A stretch of 64,000 nucleotides of DNA from an uncultured Candidatus Saccharibacteria bacterium (GCA_964468315.1 CAYXTA010000004.1:10976-74975); one strand, 5' to 3'. Shown: positions 7,881 to 64,000, counted from the first letter of the stretch. Notes: generated by a model from the letters alone, not told the origin. A program made the numbers and translations.

Positions 7881-7936
7881 AGTAAAAGAAATATAGCAGA
7901 AAATTTATAAAATTAAAAGAGCTTTATTTTTTAAAA

Positions 7937-21604: not shown

Positions 21605-22519
21605 TTAATCGTCATCTTCCTCTATTTCATTATGATATGAAGTGGATTTATGAGTACCATAATCATCTTCTTCTATATCATCAGAATCATCTTCATCATC
21701 GTCTGATTCAATATCACTCTTAATAACATTTGAAAGCATTAATAATTTAGTTGAATTTAATGTATTAATAGCTAAATTAAATTTATCAACAGAACCATTA
21801 TAATCAGAAGTATTTAATAAAATTTTACCTTCTTCTATAGATTTTTCAGTGGAAGAAAGTTTATTATCAATTTGAGTTTGTATGTTTACCGATAATTTGA
21901 TTTTGTCTTTTTGATATGACAATTTAACTGTTTTTAATAAATTTTCAGCATCTTTTTGTTTTTGAGAAGCTGTAGATGAATCTTCTATTGGTTGATTTGT
22001 ACTTACTTGTATTTTTGTATCTTGATTTACTGTTTGACTAGAATTTTGTATAACATCAACTAATTTTTTTGTTTCTTGTTTTGTTATTTCATTTGTATTT
22101 TCATTTGAAGATACATTATCAAAAACATTTTTATAAGCTTGAAGTGAAGCTTGCATTCTAATGTTTAAATCCGAAGAATTAACAGATTGATTTTTTACTA
22201 AAGCTAATTCTTTTACTTTAACATTAAAATCTTCAACTTGATTTTTTATTTTATTTTCTAATTCTAACCTAAAAGCTTCGTCTAATTTGTTTTCAGAAAT
22301 TAATTTTTTGGCTTCTTCTAAACGACGCTCTACTAATCTTTCTTTCCATTCTGTTTTTTCTTCTTTTGTAAGAGCAAAAACACCTGCTACTGGTTCATTT
22401 ACAAAAATTTTAATACCATATAACAAATTTCCAGGTACAGATTTTTCTGCAAATGCTGAAGTAGTACCTAATGATAAAATAACTATAATTACAATAATTT
22501 CTTTAATAAAATTTTTCAT
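21605..22519 (-). CDS. Secreted coiled-coil protein with a strongly acidic C-terminal tail.
   Basis: Signal peptide ..TTSAFA. C-terminus DDDEDDSDDIEEDDY..EIEEDDD. Confidence 0.45.
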   Translation of the reverse strand: MKNFIKEIIVIIVILSLGTTSAFAEKSVPGNLLYGIKIFVNEPVAGVFALTKEEKTEWKERLVERRLEEAKKLISENKLDEAFRLELENKIKNQVEDFNVKVKELALVKNQSVNSSDLNIRMQASLQAYKNVFDNVSSNENTNEITKQETKKLVDVIQNSSQTVNQDTKIQVSTNQPIEDSSTASQKQKDAENLLKTVKLSYQKDKIKLSVNIQTQIDNKLSSTEKSIEEGKILLNTSDYNGSVDKFNLAINTLNSTKLLMLSNVIKSDIESDDDEDDSDDIEEDDYGTHKSTSYHNEIEEDDD

Positions 22520-22557
22520 ATTAGCATTATACCATACCTAAATAAAACAAATGAAAA

Positions 22558-25158: not shown

Positions 25159-25196
25159 AGAGCCATTATACGCCTATAAATAATTTTAGACAAAAA

Positions 25197-30611: not shown

Positions 30612-30629
30612 TAAGATAATTATACCTTA

Positions 30630-33968: not shown

Positions 33969-34113
33969 TTTATTAAATTTTTTAGTTAAAAGTTTAGGAA
34001 AATTATCTGATTTTTAACCGGAACAGGGCTAACAAATCTAGGTATAGTATAGCACAAAATATGACTATTTGTCAAGCATATTTAAGCCTTTATTTATATG
34101 CTAAAATATCTTT

Positions 34114-35326: not shown

Positions 35327-35436
35327 AATTTACGTATTAAGTTTACAAATTTATTTCAAATTCAACTTAACTCTACATTTTTAAACAAAAAAGTCAATTC
35401 AAGCTCATTTGATTAAATATGCTAAAATAAAAACCA

Positions 35437-42116: not shown

Positions 42117-42144
42117 ATACTAGTTTTATTCTAGCATAGAGATA

Positions 42145-43371: not shown

Positions 43372-43400
43372 AGAATAACGATTATAACATAAAGATTTGG

Positions 43401-46961: not shown

Positions 46962-46967
46962 ATATAT

Positions 46968-47304
46968 AGGTGTTAGGTAGTTGAGTTCACTTTTAGTGGA
47001 TTAGGAAAGTCCGAACACATACCAGTTTAGTCTGGAAAAGTAATGGGTAATACCCATATGTAGTAATACATAGGTGCGAACAGAGACGTCTTGATTTGAA
47101 AATTTCAAGATATCCTAAAGCAATTTAGGATAAGCTTTTATAGTAATATAGAAGTTGAAACGGCTAAATCCTTACTCGTGTGCAAGATCGTGTCCTGAGC
47201 GAAAGCGAAGGAAGAATCGCTTGAGCTTTAGAGTAATTTAAAGCCTAGATAAATAACTATCATTCCGCAAGGAAAACAAAATTCGGCTTATAGACACCTA
47301 AAAC
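46968..47304 (+). ncRNA. rnpB: RNase P RNA (bacterial type A).
   Basis: CR-I GGAAAGTCCGAACAC. CR-V ACAAAATTCGGCTTATAGACACC. 5'/3' P1 complementarity (gtgttaggt / acctaaaac). Dedicated promoter and terminator. Confidence 0.8.
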
Positions 47305-47312
47305 AAAATGAG

Positions 47313-52525: not shown

Positions 52526-52540
52526 ACCTTAATTATATCA

Positions 52541-52598: not shown

Positions 52599-53213
52599 CT
52601 ATTTAGCCAAAAAAACTTTAGAATTTCTTGTGTCACCATTTAAAAGAGGAAAACTTAAATGGTCAACACCTAAAGTTTCAAAACAAGTATCTTGTGGAAG
52701 ATGAATAGTACTCCCTAAAAAACGATCAATTTTTAAAGAAGAACCTCTGTTGTTCATGCTCTGCAACCACAATATTGGACAAGTGATACGCCTAAAAGTT
52801 ATGTCTTTAATTTCTCCATCAAATATGATTACAGGGTTTGCAAAAAAAGAATCAATAAAACTTACAATTACTCCTTTAAATGAACTAAGACGAATTGAAA
52901 ATAATCTTTCAGGTCTTATTCTAAAATCAGGTTCAATAAATTGGCAATTTTTAAAGGTAATACCACTGAAATTACAACTTCCTAAAAACAGGGATCCAAT
53001 AATAATGCATTGATTAAAACACAAGACTGTACCTTTAATACTTCGTAAACTTTTTTCTTTTTTTTCGTCATTTATTTCAGAAAAATCAAAAATCTTGTTA
53101 AAGATTTCAATATGTCCCGGCTCGTCAATTTCAACATTTTGAAGGTGTGTCTTTTTAGGATCAGATAAAAAATCAATAAAATCTGACACGGTAATCATTG
53201 TTAATGTTTCCAT
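52599..53213 (-). CDS. Hypothetical protein (204 aa).
   Basis: ORF only; Cys/Phe-rich central region. Confidence 0.4.
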   Translation of the reverse strand: METLTMITVSDFIDFLSDPKKTHLQNVEIDEPGHIEIFNKIFDFSEINDEKKEKSLRSIKGTVLCFNQCIIIGSLFLGSCNFSGITFKNCQFIEPDFRIRPERLFSIRLSSFKGVIVSFIDSFFANPVIIFDGEIKDITFRRITCPILWLQSMNNRGSSLKIDRFLGSTIHLPQDTCFETLGVDHLSFPLLNGDTRNSKVFLAK

Positions 53214-53297
53214 AATATTTAGGTTTTAGTTAAAGAATAGTTTTCTTTAACTTACCATTTATTTATACTTTTTGTCAATCTTAAAAAGTTTTACTGA

Positions 53298-53335
53298 GAA
53301 ATCAAAAAACACCCATTTATGGATGTTTTTTGTGT
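53298..53335. terminator. Intrinsic terminator ~230 nt downstream of the 16S 3' end (minus sense).
   Basis: Hairpin aacacccatttatggatgtt with flanking T/A runs. Confidence 0.55.
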
Positions 53336-53559
53336 GTGCTGTTCTTTGTTTTGTTTCGTTCTACTAATTTTATTATTTTATTTGTCTTTCCAAACTGTCA
53401 TCTTGTTTTATAGATACAAGTAAACTCCATCTTTTTTAGCTTGTGATGTTCAAGCATTGTGTGCTCAATTGAGGCACACAACACCGACTCAATAAGTCCG
53501 GTCGGAACGGGTCCGACGCTCATCTTCTGATAAATCAGAAGATGGGACGTTTTTCAAAT

Positions 53560-55088
53560 TGAATTATTCCACGACCAGCTTCCGCTAGCCGTGCCTTGTT
53601 ACGACTTAGTCCCTGTCACCGAGCTTACCTTAGGCCATCCTTATGGACAGACTTTGGGTACTCCCGGCTCCCTTGACTTGACGGGCGGTGAGTACAAGAC
53701 TTGAGAACGTATTCACCGCAGTATAGCTGACCTGCGATTACTAGCAATTCCGGCTTCATGGGGTCGAGTTGCAGCCCCCAATCCGAACTGGCGCCTTCTT
53801 TATTACGATTAGCTCAGGGTTACCCCGTCGCGACGCGTTGTAAAGGCGATTGTATTATGTGTGTGGCCCCGGATATCAGAGGGTCATGCTGACCTGGCGT
53901 TATCCTCGCCTTCCTCCCCCCATTATTCTCACGAAATCGGCACGGAAATTTCCGCACTTTTTTCACGAAGATAATGGGGGGCAGTCTCGCCTGACACTTG
54001 TAACAGACAACGAGGGTTGCGTTCGTTACCCCACTTAAGGGAACAATTCAAACCACGAACTGACGACGGCCATGCAACACCTGCCTAACTGCCCGTGAAG
54101 GCTACTAAGGTTTCCCAAAGTATTCAGCTAGGTTTCAAACCCGGGTAAGGTTTTTCGTTTACCATCGAATTGAACCACATAATCCACTGCTTGTGCAAGT
54201 CCCCGTCTATTCCTTTGAGTTTTAACCTTGCGGTCGTACTACCCAGGCGCTTCTCTTAACGCGTTAGCTTCGCCTCTCAGAGGGTCGATACTCCGAAAAG
54301 CTAGTGAAGATCGTTTAGGGCGTGGACTACTGGGGTATCTAATCCCATTCGCTACCCACGCTTTCGTGTTTGAGTGTCAGGAATACGCTAGTGCACTGCC
54401 TTCGCTTTTGGTGTTCCTCATGATATCAACGGATTTCACCCCTACTCCATGAGTTCCATGCACCCCTCGTATCCTCAAGTTTAGCCGTTTCCTCCGCATG
54501 CCCCCGGTTAAGCCGAAGAATTTAACAGAAGACTAACTAAACCACCTACACACCCTTTACGCCCAGTAATTCCGGATAACGCTTGAGGCCTCTGTATTAC
54601 CGCTACTGCTGGCACAGAGTTTGTAGCCTCTTATTCGTGGGGTACTATCAATAAACTTTCTCCCCCATAAAAGAATTTTACGTGCCGAAGCACTTCATCA
54701 TTCACGCGGCGTCGCTCGATCAGACTTTCGTCCATTGTCGAATATTCTCGGCTGCAGCCACCCGTAGGTGTATGGACCGTGTCTCAGTTCCATCGGTGGG
54801 GGTCAGGCTCTCACCTCCCCTAGACGTCATTGCCTTGGTAGGCTTTTACCCTACCAACTAGCTGATATCCCGCAGACCATTCCCCAAGCAATAAATTTTT
54901 ACCGTTCACCTATTTATCAGTGAGGGACCATCGGGTGTTAGCTCCGCTTTCGCGGAATTATTCCCGACTTGGGGGTATGTTATCTACGTGTTACTACCTC
55001 GTTCGCCATGGGTCTAAACCCATTCGACTTGCATGCCTTATCCACGCCGCCAGCGTTCATCCTGAGCTAGGATCAAACTCTAAAATAA
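53560..55088 (-). rRNA. rrs: 16S rRNA gene, stand-alone; no 23S, 5S or tRNA downstream. The 3' tail lacks CCUCC, helix h40 is expanded, and the 530 loop is divergent.
   Basis: 5' AGAGTTTGATCCTAGCTCAGGATGAACGCTGGCGGCGTG (rc of 55030-55082). 3' AAGTCGTAACAAGG plus helix 45 with a GGAA loop (rc of 53570-53600). Internal conserved blocks throughout. Confidence 0.9.
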
Positions 55089-55741
55089 AATCCTTGCTAA
55101 TAACTTTCGTTATTAATTTAGACTGAACGGAACAAAACAAAAGGCAGAACGGAATGTTCGAACTTTTATTTTGCACGTTGCTTATTTTTCTGTTTGTCCT
55201 GCTCGCACTCACAAAATTATTACAATTATTTCGTGAGTGGAAATTACTTAATTTAGAATATTTGGAAACTTGCTTGCATCATCGCAGCAACTTGAAAAGA
55301 AGCCGCGATGTGCAATCTCATATTTCACTTGAATTTTCAAAGTACCGCTCTGTTTTTTAATCAGAGTGTTACCCAGTATATAGATATATAAAAAGGAGTC
55401 AAGCTATGGCTATACAGGGCCATTTTTAGTGCTGCGTGGCTCTCAGGTGCCTATTTTGACCTTATTTTAAGCCATATTTTAACCTTTCTTAATAACTCCT
55501 TGGGGACTGGCTTGGCACACTGTGCGCAGACAGTAATAAACGGACAACAGATTTGTTCCCCTTCATTGCTGTATGCGTTCTTTTTTTGTTCCTCGTGCTG
55601 GTTTTACAAAAGGAGGTGCCGGGGTTTTATAGGGATTTTGTGATGGAAATTTTGTCGTTTTTTGTTTTCTCGTTTTTGTTGTTTTCTAATCGTTTCGAAA
55701 AATGAAAACATGTACCAAATCGAAAAGAAAAGGAGTTTCAC

Positions 55742-56281
55742 ATGTCTCGAGTAATTTCTCGGTCAACAGTTCTCGCATCAGTCGTCGGGTGCCTCGCTCT
55801 CGCCGCCACCACAGCCACAGCCTTCGTTGCCGTTGGATGGCATGGCCTGTCGCAAAGTGAACGCGACAGTAGAATCTTGTCCCGTGCCAGAAGTTATTCT
55901 TCCGGCACGTACACAGGGATGTCATGCAAAGAATGGGTTCGAAGAGTTGTAAGGGATGCATCTGGAAATGTTGTTACAATTCCCGCAACAAGTTCCAACG
56001 ACTACCAGTGGGAAAGCAGCGCTGATGTATATGGATACGCAGCAACGCAGTGTCCGCCACGCGGAATCGATTCTGGCCGAATCATTCAAATGATTTGGAC
56101 AAACCAAAGCAACGGGCGCACAAACCCACACACTGCAATCATTACAAGCATCACCAGCACTGGGATGAATTGGATTGATTGCAACTGGAACGGTGACCAG
56201 CGAGTTCAGCGGCACTTCGTAAGTTTCTCTGACTTCAATACTCGCGTTCGAAACAACTACACTGTTTATAAAATTCGATAG
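55742..56281 (+). CDS. Secreted CHAP/NlpC-like putative peptidoglycan amidase/peptidase. Canonical AAGGAG SD 7 nt upstream.
   Basis: Signal peptide. Cys (GMSCKEWV) and downstream His (NPHTAII) arranged as in a CHAP domain. ~50% GC. Confidence 0.45.
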   Translation: MSRVISRSTVLASVVGCLALAATTATAFVAVGWHGLSQSERDSRILSRARSYSSGTYTGMSCKEWVRRVVRDASGNVVTIPATSSNDYQWESSADVYGYAATQCPPRGIDSGRIIQMIWTNQSNGRTNPHTAIITSITSTGMNWIDCNWNGDQRVQRHFVSFSDFNTRVRNNYTVYKIR

Positions 56282-56360
56282 CACTTTTCTTGAAGGGATT
56301 CCACTCCGTGGAGTCCCTTTAGTATTTACTTATTACGTGTTTACATAGTCTTATAAAATA

Positions 56361-56882
56361 ATGAACCCGAAAAAAATTTCAATCATCGTTGTTATCTTTG
56401 CAATATTCCTCATCCTTCCATTTTTCCTGCACGACAAAAAAGAAGACAATAAAGAAAACAGTCAGAAACCAAATATTGAGACTGAAAAAATTAAAACCAC
56501 CATCAACAATAACTGGAAAGAATTTTCTGATCAGACGAAACATATATCCTTTTTGGTGCCGGATTATTTATTTCCTTTTTTCGAGGATGACCGGGTGAAT
56601 TTCCGAGAATACAAGGAGGGTCCGGGTTTTATTGATATCCACTTACAAGCATCGCAAGACCCTGATGTAGAAAAGGCAGTCGAAAAGTTAAATTACGTAC
56701 TTGGGGAAATTACCGATAGAAGAATGATTGATGGAGCCCAGTCTCTTATTGTTCCTCTAGCAGGCGAGGGTTCCGCTGGTCAAAAAACCTTGTATACAGT
56801 TAGTGAGGGTATCCTCTACACCATAAACACTCGTTTTATTGACGAAGAAAAATTCTGGAACAGTATTAAATTTTTAAACTAG
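56361..56882 (+). CDS. Hypothetical membrane-anchored protein.
   Basis: N-terminal TM ISIIVVIFAIFLILPFFL. Confidence 0.4.
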   Translation: MNPKKISIIVVIFAIFLILPFFLHDKKEDNKENSQKPNIETEKIKTTINNNWKEFSDQTKHISFLVPDYLFPFFEDDRVNFREYKEGPGFIDIHLQASQDPDVEKAVEKLNYVLGEITDRRMIDGAQSLIVPLAGEGSAGQKTLYTVSEGILYTINTRFIDEEKFWNSIKFLN

Positions 56883-56887
56883 AGCCC

Positions 56888-57793
56888 CTACCCCCTCTTA
56901 AATTTTTCAAACACAACGAGCAGTGGTGATGCGATAAAGATAGAAGAATACGTTCCAACGATGACACCGATGGTCAAAAGTAGCGCAAAATGTTCTGTTG
57001 ATTTTCCGCCAAGGAAGTAGAGCGCAACGAGCACGATCACGAGTGTAAGTGAGGTGTTGATTGAGCGACCCATTGTTTGGGTAAGGCTTCGGCCAACAAC
57101 TTGGTCGAACGGTTCTTTTCGGTTGTTTGTTTCGTGGTTGATCTGAAGATTTTCACGAACACGATCGAACACCACGATGGTGTCATGCACGGAGTACCCA
57201 AGAATCGCCAAAAGTGCGGTCATAAAAAGTAAGTCGAGTTCTGCCCCGATGTATGTGGTGAGAAAAATAAACACACCAGCAGAAATGAGCACGTCATGAA
57301 CGAGTGCGATGATTGTTGCCAAACCATATTTCCAAGACTGAACAGGACGCGAAACTTTTCGGAACGCAAACGTGACGAAAAGCACGATTCCCAAAATAGT
57401 GACAGCGATCGCCACGTAGGCTTTGTTGCGAAGTTCACTTCCAACTGTCGGACCGATTGTGTTGAAGCGATCTTCGTTGAGTTTTAACTGGCCGTTTCCC
57501 GAAAGCGCAGAAACGACTTTATTTTTAACATCGTTGTCAATTTCTTTTGTTCGAAGGGTGTAGCTTTTATCACCTGATGGGCGCAGAGAATATGCACCGA
57601 GTGAAAGTGTGTCGAGTTTTACTTTTGTCGCTTCAAAATCTGGACGAGCGGTTTCGTATGTAACTTCCAAAATCGAACCGCCAGTAAAGTCGATGCCGAA
57701 GTTAAAACCTCGAACAACCATCGAGCCAATCGAGAAGATCACCAAGATCGCGGTGAGAATGAAAAATATTTTTCTGTGTCGGACGATAAACAT
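56888..57793 (-). CDS. secF: Protein translocase subunit SecF.
   Basis: Six-TM SecF architecture, adjacent to secD. Confidence 0.9.
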   Translation of the reverse strand: MFIVRHRKIFFILTAILVIFSIGSMVVRGFNFGIDFTGGSILEVTYETARPDFEATKVKLDTLSLGAYSLRPSGDKSYTLRTKEIDNDVKNKVVSALSGNGQLKLNEDRFNTIGPTVGSELRNKAYVAIAVTILGIVLFVTFAFRKVSRPVQSWKYGLATIIALVHDVLISAGVFIFLTTYIGAELDLLFMTALLAILGYSVHDTIVVFDRVRENLQINHETNNRKEPFDQVVGRSLTQTMGRSINTSLTLVIVLVALYFLGGKSTEHFALLLTIGVIVGTYSSIFIASPLLVVFEKFKRG

Positions 57794-57797
57794 GGTT

Positions 57798-59135
57798 TTA
57801 TTTTTGATTAGGGTCAGACTGACGGGTGTTTCTAATACCTGAACCGAACAAGAAGTGACTCAGTTTTGACTCGCGTTTCAAGCCGATCGCATACAAAAAT
57901 GTTCGAGACACGGTGATTGCGGTAAACATACTGACAAGCACTCCGATACCGAGCGTAAAGGCAAAGCCCTTAACTGCAGACGTACCGATCCAGTACAACA
58001 CAACAGCAGTGATAAGAGTCGAAATGTTTGAGTCGCGAATTGAAAGCCATGCGCGATGGAAACCTTCGTGCATTGCATCGTCGAGCTTTCGGCCACGTGC
58101 GAGCTCTTCTTTTGTTCGTTCGAAAATCAAAATGTTTGCGTCCACAGCCATACCGATCGACAAAATGAAGCCGGCAATACCTGCCGCTGTGAGCGTCACT
58201 GGAATCAGTTTAAAAATAGCGAGTGAAATAATGACATAGATAACCAACGCGACCGAAGCCACAACGCCCGGCAAGCGGTACCAAAGGATGAGGAACAAAA
58301 CGACCGCGAGGAAACCCCAGATACCAGCGACCACACCCGCATTAAGCGCAGACACACCGAGGTACGCACCAACAACCTGTGTTCCCACGAGTTCGATCGG
58401 CACTGGAAGTGCACCGTAATTTAAATTATCAACAAGGGCTTTTGCCTCCTGAGGTGTGAAGTTGCCGCTGATCTGTGCCTTTCCGCCGGTGATTTCTTCG
58501 CGTACAACCGGAGCGGAAATGACTTCTCCGTCAAGGAAAATTGCCACCGGCTGACCGATATTTTCGCGGGTAATTTTTGCGAAAAGCTTGCTGCCCTCTT
58601 CGTTAAAAGTCAGCGCGACTGACGCTTCACTTGTATTTGGATTAAATTCAACAACGCTGTGTTCGAGCAAACGGCCGGTCAAACCTGTTGCTGTAAAGGC
58701 AACAGTTGAAGACGCAGTCGGAGTCGCCTTTACTTCCGAAACCAATTTGAATTCAAGGACCGGAGTTTTTCCGATAAGTTCGATTGCTTTGTCGATGTCG
58801 GTGACACCAGGAAGCTCAACAATGAGACGGTGGTCAGCTCGGCCCGCAAGCGCATTGGCTTTTTCAACCTGGATGATCGGCTCAGAAACACCGTAAATGT
58901 TTACACGACGTTCAATAACGTTTTGGAGCACCTCCATTGAATTGTCGATTTCTGACGCGTCGAGCTCAGAAACGTCTGCCTTGTAGACAAGCTCGGTGCC
59001 GCCGTTTAAGTCGAGACCCAACACAAACGGAAAACGGCCAAACCATGAGTCGGGTTTTGCCTGTGAAAGATAGAGACCGTATCCGAGCAGTGCGAAGACA
59101 ATAATCAGAACGAGGGTAAAAATCCGGTTTTTCAT
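57798..59135 (-). CDS. secD: Protein translocase subunit SecD.
   Basis: N-terminal TM, periplasmic domain, C-terminal 5-TM SecD/F core (LGLDLNGGTELVY). Confidence 0.9.
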   Translation of the reverse strand: MKNRIFTLVLIIVFALLGYGLYLSQAKPDSWFGRFPFVLGLDLNGGTELVYKADVSELDASEIDNSMEVLQNVIERRVNIYGVSEPIIQVEKANALAGRADHRLIVELPGVTDIDKAIELIGKTPVLEFKLVSEVKATPTASSTVAFTATGLTGRLLEHSVVEFNPNTSEASVALTFNEEGSKLFAKITRENIGQPVAIFLDGEVISAPVVREEITGGKAQISGNFTPQEAKALVDNLNYGALPVPIELVGTQVVGAYLGVSALNAGVVAGIWGFLAVVLFLILWYRLPGVVASVALVIYVIISLAIFKLIPVTLTAAGIAGFILSIGMAVDANILIFERTKEELARGRKLDDAMHEGFHRAWLSIRDSNISTLITAVVLYWIGTSAVKGFAFTLGIGVLVSMFTAITVSRTFLYAIGLKRESKLSHFLFGSGIRNTRQSDPNQK

Positions 59136-59173
59136 TTGAAGCCAAATTATAGGCGTTTGATAAGAAAAAGCAA

Positions 59174-60079
59174 CTATCTTTTTTCGAGTGAAACAAGCTC
59201 GGCAATTCCCTCTTCGAGCGTTACTTTTGGCTCCCAGCCGAGGATTTTTCGAGCTTTTGAGTTATCTGCAAGGGTATGTTTTGGTTCGAGGCGTTCTGGA
59301 ATATGCTCAACCGCGCCACCAATCAGCTCCGCTACTTTTTTAATGGTGTAATTATTTCCCGCGCCAATATTAAACACTTCGCCATTCGTGACGCCAGCCG
59401 CTTCAGCCGCCAACATATTTGCTCGGACAACATCGTGCACACTCGTAAAGTCGCGAGTTTGTTCCCCGTCCCCCGTTATGGTCAGTGCGCCACCTTCTCT
59501 TTTTTGTTTTAAAAATTTAGCAATCACAAGCGCATATGCACCCTTTTCGCTCTGACCTGGACCGTACACGTTGAAGTACCGAAGTGAAACGGTGGGCAAA
59601 CCATACACCTCGCTCCAGACTCGGCACATGAGCTCGCCCACATGTTTCTGCAAACCGTACGGACTTTTTGGGTTTGCAGGTAGGTCTTCGCGAAGTGGCA
59701 TGGTTTTCTGGTCGCCGTACGCAGAACTTGAAGCGGAATACACAACTCGTTTAACCTTAGCCTTTTCAGAAGCAATAAGGACATTTAAGGTTCCCGTCAC
59801 GTTTACGCTGTGTGTTTCTTCTGGAAATTCGATCGAAAACTGCACGCGAGGCAATGCCGCCAAGTGAAACACGTATTGTGCACCAGCAAAAACCGGAATG
59901 ATGGATTCGAGGTTTCGAATATCGAGTTCGTGTAACGTCGCACCAGCGTCAACTACTTCCCGACTTCCACCTGCAAGGTTGTCGATTACGTGCACATCGA
60001 AATCTTTTTTCACGAGTTCACGCACAAGGTTCGAACCAATAAATCCCGCTCCACCTGTCACCACAACTTTTGTTTTCAT
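59174..60079 (-). CDS. NAD-dependent epimerase/dehydratase (UDP-sugar 4-epimerase, GalE/WbpP-like).
   Basis: VVVTGGAGFIGSNL Rossmann motif and YxxxK (YSASSSAYG). Confidence 0.85.
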   Translation of the reverse strand: MKTKVVVTGGAGFIGSNLVRELVKKDFDVHVIDNLAGGSREVVDAGATLHELDIRNLESIIPVFAGAQYVFHLAALPRVQFSIEFPEETHSVNVTGTLNVLIASEKAKVKRVVYSASSSAYGDQKTMPLREDLPANPKSPYGLQKHVGELMCRVWSEVYGLPTVSLRYFNVYGPGQSEKGAYALVIAKFLKQKREGGALTITGDGEQTRDFTSVHDVVRANMLAAEAAGVTNGEVFNIGAGNNYTIKKVAELIGGAVEHIPERLEPKHTLADNSKARKILGWEPKVTLEEGIAELVSLEKR

Positions 60080-60103
60080 GTGTTTGTTTTAATACTTTAA
60101 ACC

Positions 60104-61459
60104 CTAAATTCCATTGCTCGATAATAATGTTTTAATCGTCTTGAGTGCGATTTTCAGATCAAGCATCAGCGAACTGTTTTTCAAATAATAGAGGTCGTAA
60201 GAAAGTTTCAGCTTTGTTTTGTCGACGTCCATCATCGCTTTTGGCGGTTGGCGCTGGTACAACTGCGCCCAGCCAGAAAGGCCCGGTTTCATCAAATGTC
60301 GAATGTTGTAATACGGAATTTCTTTTTCATATTCTGCCGCAAGAGCTGGGAGCTCGGCGCGCGGACCAATCAGCGAAAGGTCTCCACGGAAGACATTCCA
60401 CAATTGAGGCAGTTCGTCGAGACGTAACTTTCGCAAATACGCACCGACTTTTGTAATTTTATTTTGCTTTGCAATTTCGCGAGAATATTCACCTTGGTCG
60501 TTGGTTGTCATGCTGCGGAATTTATATACACGGACCAATTTATTATTTTTTCCAATACGATCCTGAACGATAAAAATCGGGCCACCGTCTTCCATTTTTA
60601 TTGCCGCAATCACAAACGGATAAAAAACCAGCGATGCAATGCCGACACAAAACGAAACCACGATATCCATGAGTCGTTTCAGGAAGTCATACGTGTTATT
60701 CGAAGAAACTGAAATATTTTCGATGAACCAATTGTGATTCACGAGCGACATGGGAACACGGTCAAACGTCTCTTCGTAAATCGTGTTCATGTCGACAAAT
60801 CGAACTTTTGAAAAAATGAGGTTATACAAATGCGGCAACAATGGCTGAACCTTTTTATCTTTAAAATCTGCAGCAACAATGTGAACATGGTTACTTACAA
60901 TTCTCCGCGCAATGTCCTCGCAAAAACTCGCATCTTCAATATTATCCGTGTCGACAGACGTCACAAAATACAGACCATACCGAGGATTATTATTTACTTC
61001 GTCCATAAGCTCCTGCGCCTCTTCATCATTACCAATCAAAATAGCTTTTTCCGACTCGTGTGAAGACAACAAAGAAACGCCACGAATGCGCCAGAGCAAA
61101 ATAAGTCCAAACGAAATCACAACGTACACAAAAAGATTCGTTTTCGGTGTAATGCCAAAAAACGGAATGAGGTAGAAAAAGATAACGGCAATTGCGCTAT
61201 TGACCAGCTGCGCATTTAAAATAATCGTTGGAATGCGACTTTTTAAAAGAAGTGTGTGTTTTTCATACAAACCAGCGATAAAAAATACAATGAACCACAG
61301 GACAAAAATAATGGAAAAAGACCAGACGTGACTCAAAAAAATATCTGTGTCCGGTATACCTCGAAAACGCACCAAAAGCATGAGCCACAAGGAGAAAAAG
61401 AAAACGATAACGTCCCCTACAAATAACATCAGGGCTTCGTTTTTATTCATAACTGCCAT
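60104..61459 (-). CDS. Polyprenyl-phosphate sugar phosphotransferase (WbaP/WcaJ-like bacterial sugar transferase).
   Basis: N-terminal TM helices. C-terminal sugar-transferase domain ..PGLSGWAQL. Confidence 0.85.
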   Translation of the reverse strand: MAVMNKNEALMLFVGDVIVFFFSLWLMLLVRFRGIPDTDIFLSHVWSFSIIFVLWFIVFFIAGLYEKHTLLLKSRIPTIILNAQLVNSAIAVIFFYLIPFFGITPKTNLFVYVVISFGLILLWRIRGVSLLSSHESEKAILIGNDEEAQELMDEVNNNPRYGLYFVTSVDTDNIEDASFCEDIARRIVSNHVHIVAADFKDKKVQPLLPHLYNLIFSKVRFVDMNTIYEETFDRVPMSLVNHNWFIENISVSSNNTYDFLKRLMDIVVSFCVGIASLVFYPFVIAAIKMEDGGPIFIVQDRIGKNNKLVRVYKFRSMTTNDQGEYSREIAKQNKITKVGAYLRKLRLDELPQLWNVFRGDLSLIGPRAELPALAAEYEKEIPYYNIRHLMKPGLSGWAQLYQRQPPKAMMDVDKTKLKLSYDLYYLKNSSLMLDLKIALKTIKTLLSSNGI

Positions 61460-61554
61460 AGAAGTAAGACTATATTATACATAACAACCACCTGTAGCAA
61501 GTCGCCGCGATACAACGCACGACACACTACCAAACACCGCCGACGTGTTACTAT

Positions 61555-62706
61555 ATGAACAATTCAACAGCTATGGATAATACCGTTTCGAAGAAAAAGA
61601 TCCTTTTTGCGATTACAAAAGGAAGCTGGGGTGGAGCACAAAAGTATGTCTTTGATCTTGCAACAAACCTTCCAAAAGACCGGTTCGACGTTGTCGTACT
61701 CTGTGGTGAAGGTGAACAACTCGAAGCAAAATTAGCTGAAAAAAATATCCGGGTCATTCGACTTGGTTCGCTCCAAAGAAACATGAGCCTGGGTAAGGAC
61801 CTCGATTCTTTTTTTTCAGTCTGGAAAATAGTAGCCGACGAAAAGCCAGACATCCTGCATTTAAATAGCTCAAAAATCGGGGGTATCGGCGCACTTGCTG
61901 GTCGCCTCGCCGGTGTACCCCAGATTATTTTCACAGGTCACGGCTGGGCATGGAACGAAAACCGCAGTCCGATTTCTAAATCCCTCATCACCCTCGCCCA
62001 CTGGGCAACTATTTTGCTCGCTCACACCACGATCGCCGTTTCTGAAAAAATCAAACAACAAATTCGAAATCTGCCTTTTATTTCTACGTCAAAAGTTGCC
62101 GTGATCCACAACGGCATCGACCACATTGAATTTCTCGAGCGCTTCACTGCCCGCTCCGGGGTCAACGGAACCATCAGCGAAAAATTTTGGGTTGGAACTA
62201 TCGGCGAACTTCACACAAACAAAGGCCTCGACACCCTTATCACTGCTTTTGCTGAAGTGTCGAAATCTCATGTCGACACAGCACTTCTCATTATCGGCGA
62301 GGGCGAAGAACGCGCGCACCTCACAGCCCTGATTCAGAAAATGGGCATGCAGAAAAAAATCCACCTGTTGGGATTTAAAGAAAATGCGGCCAGTCTTTTA
62401 AAAGCGTTCGATGTTTTTGTACTTCCTTCACGCACCGAGGCGTTTCCATATGTCCTCTTGGAAGCCGGCTTGGCACAGTTGCCCGTAGTTGCGACCCGTG
62501 TTGGTGGTATTCCGGAAGTGGTTGTTGAAGGAAAAAATGGACTTTTGGTCAGCCCGAATGAATCATTTGCCCTTTCCCGTGCCATAGACCAGATCCTCGA
62601 AGACAGCACAAAAGCTGCCATGTTTGGGCACAATCTACGTAAAACTGTCGAGGAACGATTCTCGATTGAACACATGGTTGAAAAAACAATTGCCATATAT
62701 AATTAA
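61555..62706 (+). CDS. Glycosyltransferase family 4.
   Basis: EAFPYVLLEAGLAQLPVVATRVGGIPEVV (the EX7E motif region). Confidence 0.85.
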   Translation: MNNSTAMDNTVSKKKILFAITKGSWGGAQKYVFDLATNLPKDRFDVVVLCGEGEQLEAKLAEKNIRVIRLGSLQRNMSLGKDLDSFFSVWKIVADEKPDILHLNSSKIGGIGALAGRLAGVPQIIFTGHGWAWNENRSPISKSLITLAHWATILLAHTTIAVSEKIKQQIRNLPFISTSKVAVIHNGIDHIEFLERFTARSGVNGTISEKFWVGTIGELHTNKGLDTLITAFAEVSKSHVDTALLIIGEGEERAHLTALIQKMGMQKKIHLLGFKENAASLLKAFDVFVLPSRTEAFPYVLLEAGLAQLPVVATRVGGIPEVVVEGKNGLLVSPNESFALSRAIDQILEDSTKAAMFGHNLRKTVEERFSIEHMVEKTIAIYN

Positions 62707-62710
62707 ACAT

Positions 62711-63571
62711 ATGAATAAATTTAAACATGGTTTCACATTGATCGAACTCCTCGTGATCATTTCTATTCTTGGCCTCATTTCAAGCGTTGCACTCGCAAAC
62801 CTCCAAGACGCAAAAGAAAAAGCAAAAGTCGCTGCCGGTGAACAATTCCATGCGACCATCTACCACAGCCAGGGCGACCACACTGTCGGCATCTGGGAGT
62901 TTGACGAAGGAAACGGCTCGGTCGCTTCAGACAGTTCAGGTAATGGACTCGAAGGGGTTATTAACGGCGCAACGTTTGTATCAGGATTGAATGGCACTGC
63001 CCTCTCTTTTGACGGAAACGACTACATAGCACCACCCGAGGGCGGAGAAATTTTTCCAAACCCAGGTAACAACGGCCAAATGACCGTCATCACCTGGATC
63101 AAGCCGGCGAATGCCGCAACACCCAACACCCTCTTCACTGTTGCCGGTCCAAACTGTACCGCTATAAAAGTAGGAATCTCCGGCGGATCAATGCATGTCC
63201 AACAAGCAGGTGATGTTGAAGTCGGCGCGGTGTCAGAAGACGAACCCACAAACCCAGGCCCTGGAGTGGACGAGCAAATTTCAGAAGATCACGTCTTGGA
63301 AAACAACGCGTGGCAGAATGTCGCATACGTTTTCAATAACGGCACAGTACAGAGTTTCGTAAACGGCACGCTGTTCGGTTCGACCGATGGGGTTGGAACA
63401 ACTGACTGTGAAGAAGCCACATGGATCATTGGCGCTGATGCAACGTTTGGTTCTGGATACCAAGGTCTAATGGACAGTCTACGTGTCTACGGAACGACAC
63501 TCACCGCTTCTGAGATCCAGAATATTTATGCTGAAGGACGAACCGAACGATCCACACTTGTCAGCCGCTAA
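62711..63571 (+). CDS. Type IV pilin-like protein: prepilin N-terminal cleavage/methylation motif plus LamG/concanavalin-like domain. Start trimmed to ATG at 62711.
   Basis: MNKFKHGFTLIELLVIISILGL (G|FTLIE class III signal). Laminin-G-like region WIKPANAATPNTLFTVAG... Confidence 0.7.
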   Translation: MNKFKHGFTLIELLVIISILGLISSVALANLQDAKEKAKVAAGEQFHATIYHSQGDHTVGIWEFDEGNGSVASDSSGNGLEGVINGATFVSGLNGTALSFDGNDYIAPPEGGEIFPNPGNNGQMTVITWIKPANAATPNTLFTVAGPNCTAIKVGISGGSMHVQQAGDVEVGAVSEDEPTNPGPGVDEQISEDHVLENNAWQNVAYVFNNGTVQSFVNGTLFGSTDGVGTTDCEEATWIIGADATFGSGYQGLMDSLRVYGTTLTASEIQNIYAEGRTERSTLVSR

Positions 63572-63604
63572 ACTAATTGCTAATAATTAATAAAACCAAA
63601 CACA

Positions 63605-63805
63605 ATGAGTGACGAAGTAAAATTTGAAGAAGAGGAAATACTAGTTGACCGTGCATCGCAGATTTCTCGTGGGTCAGCACTCACCAACCTCCTTTTGCGC
63701 TCAGGCATCGCAAAAAACGAATCGCAGGCAACCTATATTTTGATCGCTATTATGGTTGCGGCCCTCCTTGCAACTCTCTACGTTGTTTCTCAGTATTTGC
63801 TTTAG
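63605..63805 (+). CDS. Small membrane protein (66 aa).
   Basis: C-terminal TM YILIAIMVAALLATLYVV. Confidence 0.3.
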   Translation: MSDEVKFEEEEILVDRASQISRGSALTNLLLRSGIAKNESQATYILIAIMVAALLATLYVVSQYLL

Positions 63806-63825
63806 GCTGGACCTCAAAATATCTA

Positions 63826-64000
63826 TCAGGCGCCGTGGATTCCAACGATTTCGTTTTGGGCCATGTCTTTGTGCGCGGGTCGGCCGTATCGTGCCATACC
63901 TGAAATCACACCGATCGTCGCAAACTCCACGAGCAAATGACTGCCACCGTAGCTCATAAACGGCACGGTAATTCCTGTTACGGGCAACAAGCCGACATTC
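63826..64000 (-). CDS. SEDS-family cell-cycle protein (FtsW/RodA), C-terminal fragment; N-terminus lies beyond the window end.
   Basis: Manual minus-strand translation gives ..[39 protein letters not shown].. and a TGA stop. Confidence 0.65.

Follow-up and report, generated by a model that had tools for sequence, protein, structure and literature searches.

Features of the locus

The window, by which is meant the whole 64,000-nucleotide stretch of DNA that was analysed, carries a 16S rRNA gene on its minus strand (Table 1). The Rfam match extends over the model from end to end, so the 3' terminus of the gene is complete and the gene is not truncated. A truncated copy or pseudogene was considered and rejected, as no model ends are missing and no conserved helices are disrupted in a way that would set the gene apart from its relatives. 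The gene contains an insertion of approximately 54-58 nt at a helix tip near Rfam model position 1160 (the h40 region), which is self-complementary (CCAUUAUCUUCGUGAAA...UUUCGUGAGAAUAAUGG); the 16S genes of the CPR are known for insertions of this kind.

The trailer of 250 nt behind the gene (53302-53556) is strongly structured (z = -6.4 for the folding of 53295-53600), and a scan of the trailer against Rfam at a permissive threshold gave chance-level matches only. No tRNA or 23S rRNA gene was found in the window, nor does one follow the 16S gene, and this, together with the presence of a terminator of its own, indicates that the 16S gene is a separate transcription unit and that the rRNA genes are unlinked. 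Elsewhere in the window there is an RNase P RNA of class A, which scores 105.9 bits against an Rfam threshold of 100 and in which several helices are shortened.

Table 1. Coordinates of features in the window. A and B denote the two organisms from which the contig probably derives (see below); L121 and L122 are ENA assemblies and L123 is a Logan contig.
Feature	Position	Strand	Details
16S rRNA gene, full length	53557-55088	minus	Rfam SSU_rRNA_bacteria, 1356 bits, model positions 1-1533
Helix 45 (CACGGCUAGC-GGAA-GCUGGUCGUG), intact	53570-53593	minus	3' alignment to Rfam model
3' tail GAAUAAUUCAAUU replacing GAUCACCUCCUUU, core CCUCC absent	53557-53569	minus	3' alignment
Tail hairpin UUCA-AUU-UGAA	53553-53563	minus	UUCA 53563-53560, loop AUU, UGAA 53556-53553
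Structured 3' trailer	53439-53546	minus	hairpins 53519-53546, 53484-53517, 53457-53481, 53439-53455
Predicted pre-16S leader-trailer stem, 3' strand (UAGAACGAAACAAAACAAAGAACAGCA)	53337-53363	minus	27 contiguous pairs with L121/L122 leader
Leader segment related to stem 5' strand, mismatched to trailer	55123-55147	minus	organism B
Intrinsic-terminator-like hairpin and U run, end of 16S transcription unit	53302-53331	minus	
Probable chimeric junction zone	53581-53626		last position differing from L121/L122 is 53627; L123 starts at 53581
16S insertion	53920-53977	minus	
Promoter-like TTGACT-16-TATACT	55375-55402	minus	
RNase P RNA, class A	46965-47306	plus	
Gene preceded by AAAGGAG	55742-56281	plus	
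Leaderless-type promoter, example TGnTATAAT	22526-22531	minus	ends 6 nt before ATG at 22519
Further leaderless-type -10 boxes	25165-25170, 30619-30624, 34102-34107, 35423-35428, 43381-43386		
Further leaderless-type -10 boxes	52532-52537, 7890-7895, 42128-42133, 59146-59151, 61469-61474		

The 3' end of the 16S rRNA

In the 3' alignment the sequence upstream of helix 45 reads AAGUCGUAACAAGG and helix 45 is perfectly paired; in the covariance-model alignment of relatives (see below) this helix was 99.9% paired and four of its pairs showed changes on both sides. The 13 nt that follow, GAAUAAUUCAAUU, align without gaps to the consensus GAUcACCUCCUUu, and at the CCUCC positions every C except C1538 is represented by A or U. 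The tail bases that have been retained are G1530, A1531, A1534, U1537, C1538 and U1541 (E. coli numbering). It had been predicted from the sequence that the anti-Shine-Dalgarno (anti-SD) was absent and that helix 45 with its GGAA loop was intact, and both statements are borne out, the pairing of the helix being entirely normal. A CCUCC tail lying further downstream, an observation that would have told against the prediction, was looked for on the minus strand between 52500 and 53700, but neither CCTCC, CACCTCC nor GATCACC occurs there and there is thus no displaced tail behind a spacer or an intron. Helix 45, the tail and the trailer are identical in three independent assemblies (L121, L122 and L123).

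Distribution of the trait and affiliation of the organism

Species-representative genomes were scanned with the pattern AAGTCGTAACAAGGCAC-N7-GGAA-N7-GTG, which fixes the outer pairs of helix 45 and leaves the tail free. At least 120 loci were matched and, among the matches listed, nearly all were in MAGs labelled as Parcubacteria, Paceibacterota or Patescibacteria, with Nomura-, Kaiser-, Taylor-, Zambryski-, Adler-, Ryan-, Jorgensen- and Staskawicz-bacteria represented. Tails without CCTCC made up 113 of the 120 matches listed, all of which share the helix 45 signature, and the seven listed with the canonical GATCACCTCCTTTCT mostly have a different helix 45 (CACCGG or CACCCG), as in Candidatus Uhrbacteria (L034). 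Both helix 45 and tail of Candidatus Nomurabacteria GW2011_GWA1_36_15 (L049) are identical to those of the window. The best full-length 16S identities among the listed genomes were only 81-82% (to a member of Candidatus Taylorbacteria, L010), with partial matches at 84-86%, so the organism is a distinct member of the group; its affiliation with the Parcubacteria/Paceibacteria is based on the helix 45 signature and 16S identities.

Loss of the anti-SD is described as rare in bacteria by Tsurumaki et al. (2022, RNA 28:1041; PMC9297842). In the same paper no more than 48% of Parcubacteria were found to have the CCTCCT motif, and the lineages in which it is missing overlap with the group lacking uL1. 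According to a 2025 study (MBE; PMC12641178), rplA and der are absent from Paceibacteria, as is era in most cases. The Parcubacteria subgroup described in 2022 and the window are of the same lineage and have the same trait, in that CCUCCU is missing from the 16S 3' end; the 16S of the window is complete, with h44 and h45 intact, and is a further member of that published subgroup. The original prediction held that such a loss is very rare among bacteria; for this lineage that does not hold, given the proportion of listed relatives without CCUCC and the report of 2022, and since the loss is both published and common in Parcubacteria the 16S of the window is not a rarity in its own lineage.

A contig of probably two origins

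The base composition of the window changes abruptly at the 16S gene (1-53626 compared with 53627-64000). The GC content is about 0.32 up to 53 kb as against about 0.45 beyond 55 kb, and third-position GC is 0.14-0.19 (about 0.17) in the genes on the left as against 0.40-0.50 (about 0.47) in the seven genes on the right. Two ENA assemblies, L121 and L122, match the window at 99.5-100% identity over the gene at 52599-53213, the trailer and the tail, whereas the body of their 16S differs from that of the window by about 9% over 53627-54897, with only five mismatches below 53627, and their upstream flank is different, of low GC, and carries Peptidase_S24 and GTPase genes. Logan contigs end at the edges of the 16S gene, one (L123) corresponding to 53581-52050 and another (L127) to 55054-60281. 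It is therefore very likely that the contig combines sequence from two related Parcubacteria: positions 1 to about 53626, tail and trailer included, would come from a low-GC organism, A, and the body of the 16S (about 53627-55088) together with the right flank from its relative, B. The contig is probably misassembled, with the join inside the 16S gene. This join is a practical warning for users of the contig or of the genome bin.

An ungapped complementarity search revealed pairing between the leader and the trailer that is uninterrupted for 27 pairs in L121/L122, as against 13 contiguous pairs between the trailer and the window's own leader, in which the segment has diverged. The pairing in L121/L122 would correspond to the classic pre-16S processing stem of the RNase III type. 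The promoter-like sequence upstream of the window's 16S gene (10 of 12 matches, about 290 nt from the 16S 5' end) is plausibly the rRNA promoter of organism B, to judge from its sequence. Metagenome contigs were searched for organism B's own tail and trailer with two B-specific probes from the h44 tip, 40 and 24 nt long, and no match was found.

A chimera at precisely this point raises the question of whether the loss is itself an artefact or the mark of a pseudogene, arising from an assembly error, a truncated copy or a borrowed tail, in which case CCUCC would be present on the real 16S. The probable join does lie exactly in the tail region, and metagenomic 16S assemblies are prone to such joins. 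Against this, L121, L122 and L123 all show the tail running on into the unique low-GC trailer and the gene beyond it; in L121 and L122 both flanks are of low GC, and leader and trailer form an uninterrupted stem of 27 bp; tails of this type are found in the 113 related species representatives among the matches listed; and the Rfam match is full length. An artefact is thus largely refuted and hardly credible, and because L121/L122 carry the same tail on organism A's own 16S, the finding on the anti-SD survives the chimera. The prediction that the tail matches a genome almost devoid of SD motifs has to be taken with this in mind, as the contig on which it was made probably represents two organisms and not one.

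A hairpin at the former anti-SD positions

The replacement sequence noted in the original prediction is more than an eroded tail: it is one strand of a hairpin, conserved and covarying among relatives, that reaches 4 nt past position 53557. The 5' strand of this hairpin occupies the former anti-SD positions (about 1536-1539 in E. coli), its 3' strand lies past the canonical 3' end, and it is present in the minimum-energy fold of the trailer. Relatives have UCC-AAUU-GGA, UCCA-AUU-UGGA, CUCA-AAU-UGAG, GUC-AAUU-GAC, UUCA-AGG-UGAA or UUCCA-AAU-UGGAA at the same position in the tail.

A covariance model was built from 18 tails of equal length and 100 loci were aligned to it. All four pairs of the tail helix were changed on both sides, 95.8% of cells were paired, and the covariation score of the helix was reached by none of 500 shuffles. 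Such an alignment is biased towards the structure used to build the model, and a separate test therefore used only two anchors, the UC that is invariant at tail positions 8-9 and the first GA downstream of it. When position 10 was compared with the base before GA, A-U was found in 32 distinct tails, C-G in 14 and no pair in four, so that 46 of 50 were paired against 27 expected under independence, the tails being counted here as distinct sequences and not as independent compensatory changes. For the outer pair the signal is less marked (49 of 64 paired, 43 expected), its C-G (four) and G-C (two) variants being compensated. The hairpin is short and AU-rich, and stems of 4 bp are also frequent in shuffled tails, the comparison being 86 observed with a mean of 53. 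Approximately one third of the tails without an anti-SD, those of the GAUCA(A/U)UU type, do not have the UC...GA hairpin.

Six of the seven listed relatives that keep the anti-SD have a hairpin in the same position, CUCCUU-UCU-AAGGAG or a version with AGGGAG, formed between the anti-SD and an SD-like sequence with which the spacer begins. Our reading, drawn from these sequences, is that the tail hairpin is ancestral and that both of its strands may have gone to A/U, with pairing kept, once SD pairing was given up. A rather different proposal is that the hairpin is retained on the mature 16S rRNA, either as a 3' cap or as a permanent stand-in in cis, on the platform of the 30S subunit, for the helix of SD and anti-SD, and that a large CPR clade without SD pairing has ribosomes specialised for leaderless mRNAs on which the former anti-SD forms a 3'-terminal hairpin. 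The 5' strand does sit exactly at the anti-SD positions, the 3' strand folds back in the manner of an SD, and the two covary. However, where relatives have kept the anti-SD, it is paired in a homologous hairpin with the AAGGAG of the spacer, and there the hairpin must be opened or removed for the anti-SD to work; in Bacillus-type rRNA operons the mature 16S end lies before AAGGA; and about one third of the tails without an anti-SD have no such hairpin. We consider retention on the mature rRNA unlikely, as a stand-in or a cap and as a feature of the clade alike. By analogy, the 3' strand of the hairpin is probably trimmed off, and the most likely role of the hairpin would be in the 3'-end maturation or the protection of pre-16S rRNA.

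Two of the listed loci may be intermediates. In L064 (at about 1760-1816) the canonical GATCACCTCCTTTCT is followed directly by ATTCAATTGAA, giving an anti-SD and a UUCA/UGAA hairpin in succession, but this contig is 2 kb long and could be a chimera as well. In L104, which has GATCATCTCCTTTCTAGGGAG, a single C of the anti-SD has changed and the AGGGAG hairpin is still present. There is also a second class of tail without an anti-SD (L007, L044, L062, L066, L067, L069, L094, L110 and others), in which GAUCA is kept and followed by (A/U)UUA..., for example GAUCAUUUAUUU, resembling the 18S end GAUCAUUA.

Shine-Dalgarno motifs near start codons

Genes were taken as the 51 non-overlapping ORFs called in the window, each with the first ATG of the longest ORF as its start codon, a rule that will have placed some starts wrongly, and their upstream regions were listed. 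An SD-like motif, defined as GGAG, GAGG or AGGA ending 4-12 nt before the ATG, was found in one of the 51 genes, compared with 32 of 51 when the same script was applied to a 49-kb region of E. coli K-12 (L128). For CPR genomes with a retained anti-SD the figure was 15% over 26 genes, a set too small to serve as a control. The near absence of SD motifs that had been noted from a limited number of start codons therefore extends to all the genes called, and the lone exception that had been named, the gene at 55742 preceded by AAAGGAG, proved to be the only one among the 51. This gene lies in the part of the contig assigned to organism B, whose genes have an SD-like motif in one of eight cases and a -10 box at leaderless distance in three of eight. 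It has no Pfam match, has the highest GC of the genes in the window (0.50) and is divergent from the 16S promoter region.

With the canonical pairing gone, the new tail might conceivably act as an alternative anti-SD, with GAAUAAUUCAAUU pairing with a lineage-specific motif upstream of starts, and the tail is indeed conserved in relatives and not random. However, 5-mers complementary to it were found in 13 of 49 genes at -20..-1, compared with 19 at -40..-21 and 14 at -60..-41, and this lack of enrichment argues against an alternative anti-SD. The words that are enriched near starts are -10 boxes and not complements of the tail, and variation in the tail is compensated inside the rRNA precursor hairpin, as would be expected of internal structure. 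Pairing of the new tail with mRNA is thus highly improbable.

Predicted promoters at the start codon

The sole signal enriched just before the starts is a -10 box, (TGn)TATAAT or TATACT, ending 6-9 nt upstream of the ATG. A -10-like hexamer was defined as TAnnnT with at least five of six matches to TATAAT, and its distance to the ATG was measured. In 363 genes of relatives without an anti-SD the distances were 6 nt (29 genes), 7 nt (18), 8 nt (15) and 9 nt (14) on a background of about three per position, a peak of five to ten times background. Only about 30% of genes have a -10 box at the leaderless distance of 6-9 nt. Within the window a -10 box lies 5-11 nt from the ATG in 15 of 51 genes, as against none of 51 in E. 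coli, and seven of the ten matches to the extended -10 are 6-11 nt from the ATG. TATACT occurred 38 times in -20..-1 where 3.9 were expected, the top enriched words in -20..-1 relative to -60..-21 were TATACT, GGTATA and TGCTA, and no purine-rich words were enriched in the same comparison. The base at -1 is T before 49-67% of start codons.

The usual distance between a -10 box and the start of transcription is six intervening bases. With -10 boxes some 6 nt before the ATG, transcription is expected to begin with the A of the ATG or no more than 3 nt away, and from the position of the promoters it is inferred that promoter-proximal genes give rise to leaderless mRNAs; a -10 element about 6-9 nt upstream of starts and the lack of an SD are the organisation expected of leaderless genes. 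Genes internal to operons have spacings of -25 to +38 nt, mostly below 12 nt, and A-rich contexts, and they would likely start by termination-reinitiation. The original prediction had offered leaderless or S1/A-rich-dependent initiation, and it is the leaderless part that gains support, from the sharp peak of -10 boxes 6-9 nt before the starts.

It might be argued instead that initiation is in the main of the Bacteroidetes kind, relying on A-rich unstructured leaders and bS1, with the -10 words arising merely from AT richness. In the window the stretch at -12..-5 does consist of A to 45-65%, so that upstream regions are A-rich, approximately 70% of genes have no -10 box at leaderless distance, and operon-internal genes cannot be leaderless. 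Yet the -10 words are bound to position, as the distribution over the 363 genes demonstrates, the TGn extension is frequent among them and T at -1 goes along with them, and Bacteroidetes retain an anti-SD, whereas the lineage of the window has none. As the main mechanism this is improbable, but initiation of the A-rich/bS1 type probably does still apply to the operon-internal genes.

Searches of the literature for leaderless genes or for the anti-SD in CPR/Patescibacteria gave Tsurumaki et al. (2022) and otherwise unrelated mentions; leaderless genes in this group were not described in the literature searched, which is not proof that none have been published. In the available portion of the paper on anti-SD loss (PMC9297842) the word "leaderless" occurs 0 times and no replacement hairpin is described; what that portion reports is the loss and its overlap with the lack of uL1. 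The leaderless promoter geometry and the compensated tail hairpin across the Paceibacteria, both read from sequence statistics, are possibly not yet described.

Interpretation

The explanation that we regard as likely is that the window carries the genuine 16S 3' end of a low-GC member of the Parcubacteria/Paceibacteria, together with leaderless initiation, a constrained hairpin and a misassembled contig. Promoter-proximal genes would be transcribed from the A of the AUG or from within 3 nt of it and translated as leaderless mRNAs, and for operon-internal genes initiation would be by termination-reinitiation, in contexts that are unstructured and rich in A. Once pairing to mRNA was no longer selected, the old anti-SD would have drifted to A/U. 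Structure would nevertheless have continued to constrain this segment, which forms a short hairpin, as its 5' strand, with the first nucleotides of the trailer, and the hairpin of the window may descend from the CUCCUU-UCU-AAGGAG hairpin of relatives that keep the anti-SD.

As the loss of the anti-SD has already been published, the window adds only one more example of it. What may deserve attention is the placing of promoters on start codons and the compensated hairpin at the site of the old anti-SD, across approximately 100 related genomes. How bacterial ribosomes find start codons without SD pairing is a question to which a free-standing bacterial lineage that has lost its anti-SD is relevant. 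Should metatranscriptomes agree, the Paceibacteria would be a natural model of translation relying on leaderless initiation, and would illustrate how a segment of rRNA once constrained by pairing with mRNA came to be constrained by pairing inside its own precursor.

Comparison with known systems

In eukaryotic 18S and mitochondrial small-subunit rRNAs the 3' end also keeps helix 45 with its GGAA loop and is without CCUCC. The second group of relatives ends GAUCAUUU... and so resembles the 18S end GAUCAUUA. The tail of the window is of the hairpin type and not of the GAUCAUUA type, and its origin is independent of that of 18S.

The Bacteroidetes/Flavobacteria, for which initiation independent of the SD with a sequestered anti-SD has been reported (Jha et al. 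2021, NAR 49:547), are like the window in having genes without SD motifs and A-rich upstream regions. They keep the CCUCC tail, which is hidden within the ribosome. A sequestered anti-SD of this type was rejected for the window, whose 16S does not contain the anti-SD sequence. Thus in one case CCUCC is kept but hidden, and in the other the sequence is gone and the promoter lies directly on the start codon.

The known bacteria and archaea that are rich in leaderless genes, namely Mycobacterium, Deinococcus and the haloarchaea (PMC3898074, PMC3160421; GeneMarkS-2, PMC6028130), resemble the window in having a -10 box about 6-7 nt before the start and no SD. The leaderless-rich bacteria have kept a functional anti-SD and use the SD on their leadered genes, whereas in the lineage of the window the anti-SD has been lost altogether.
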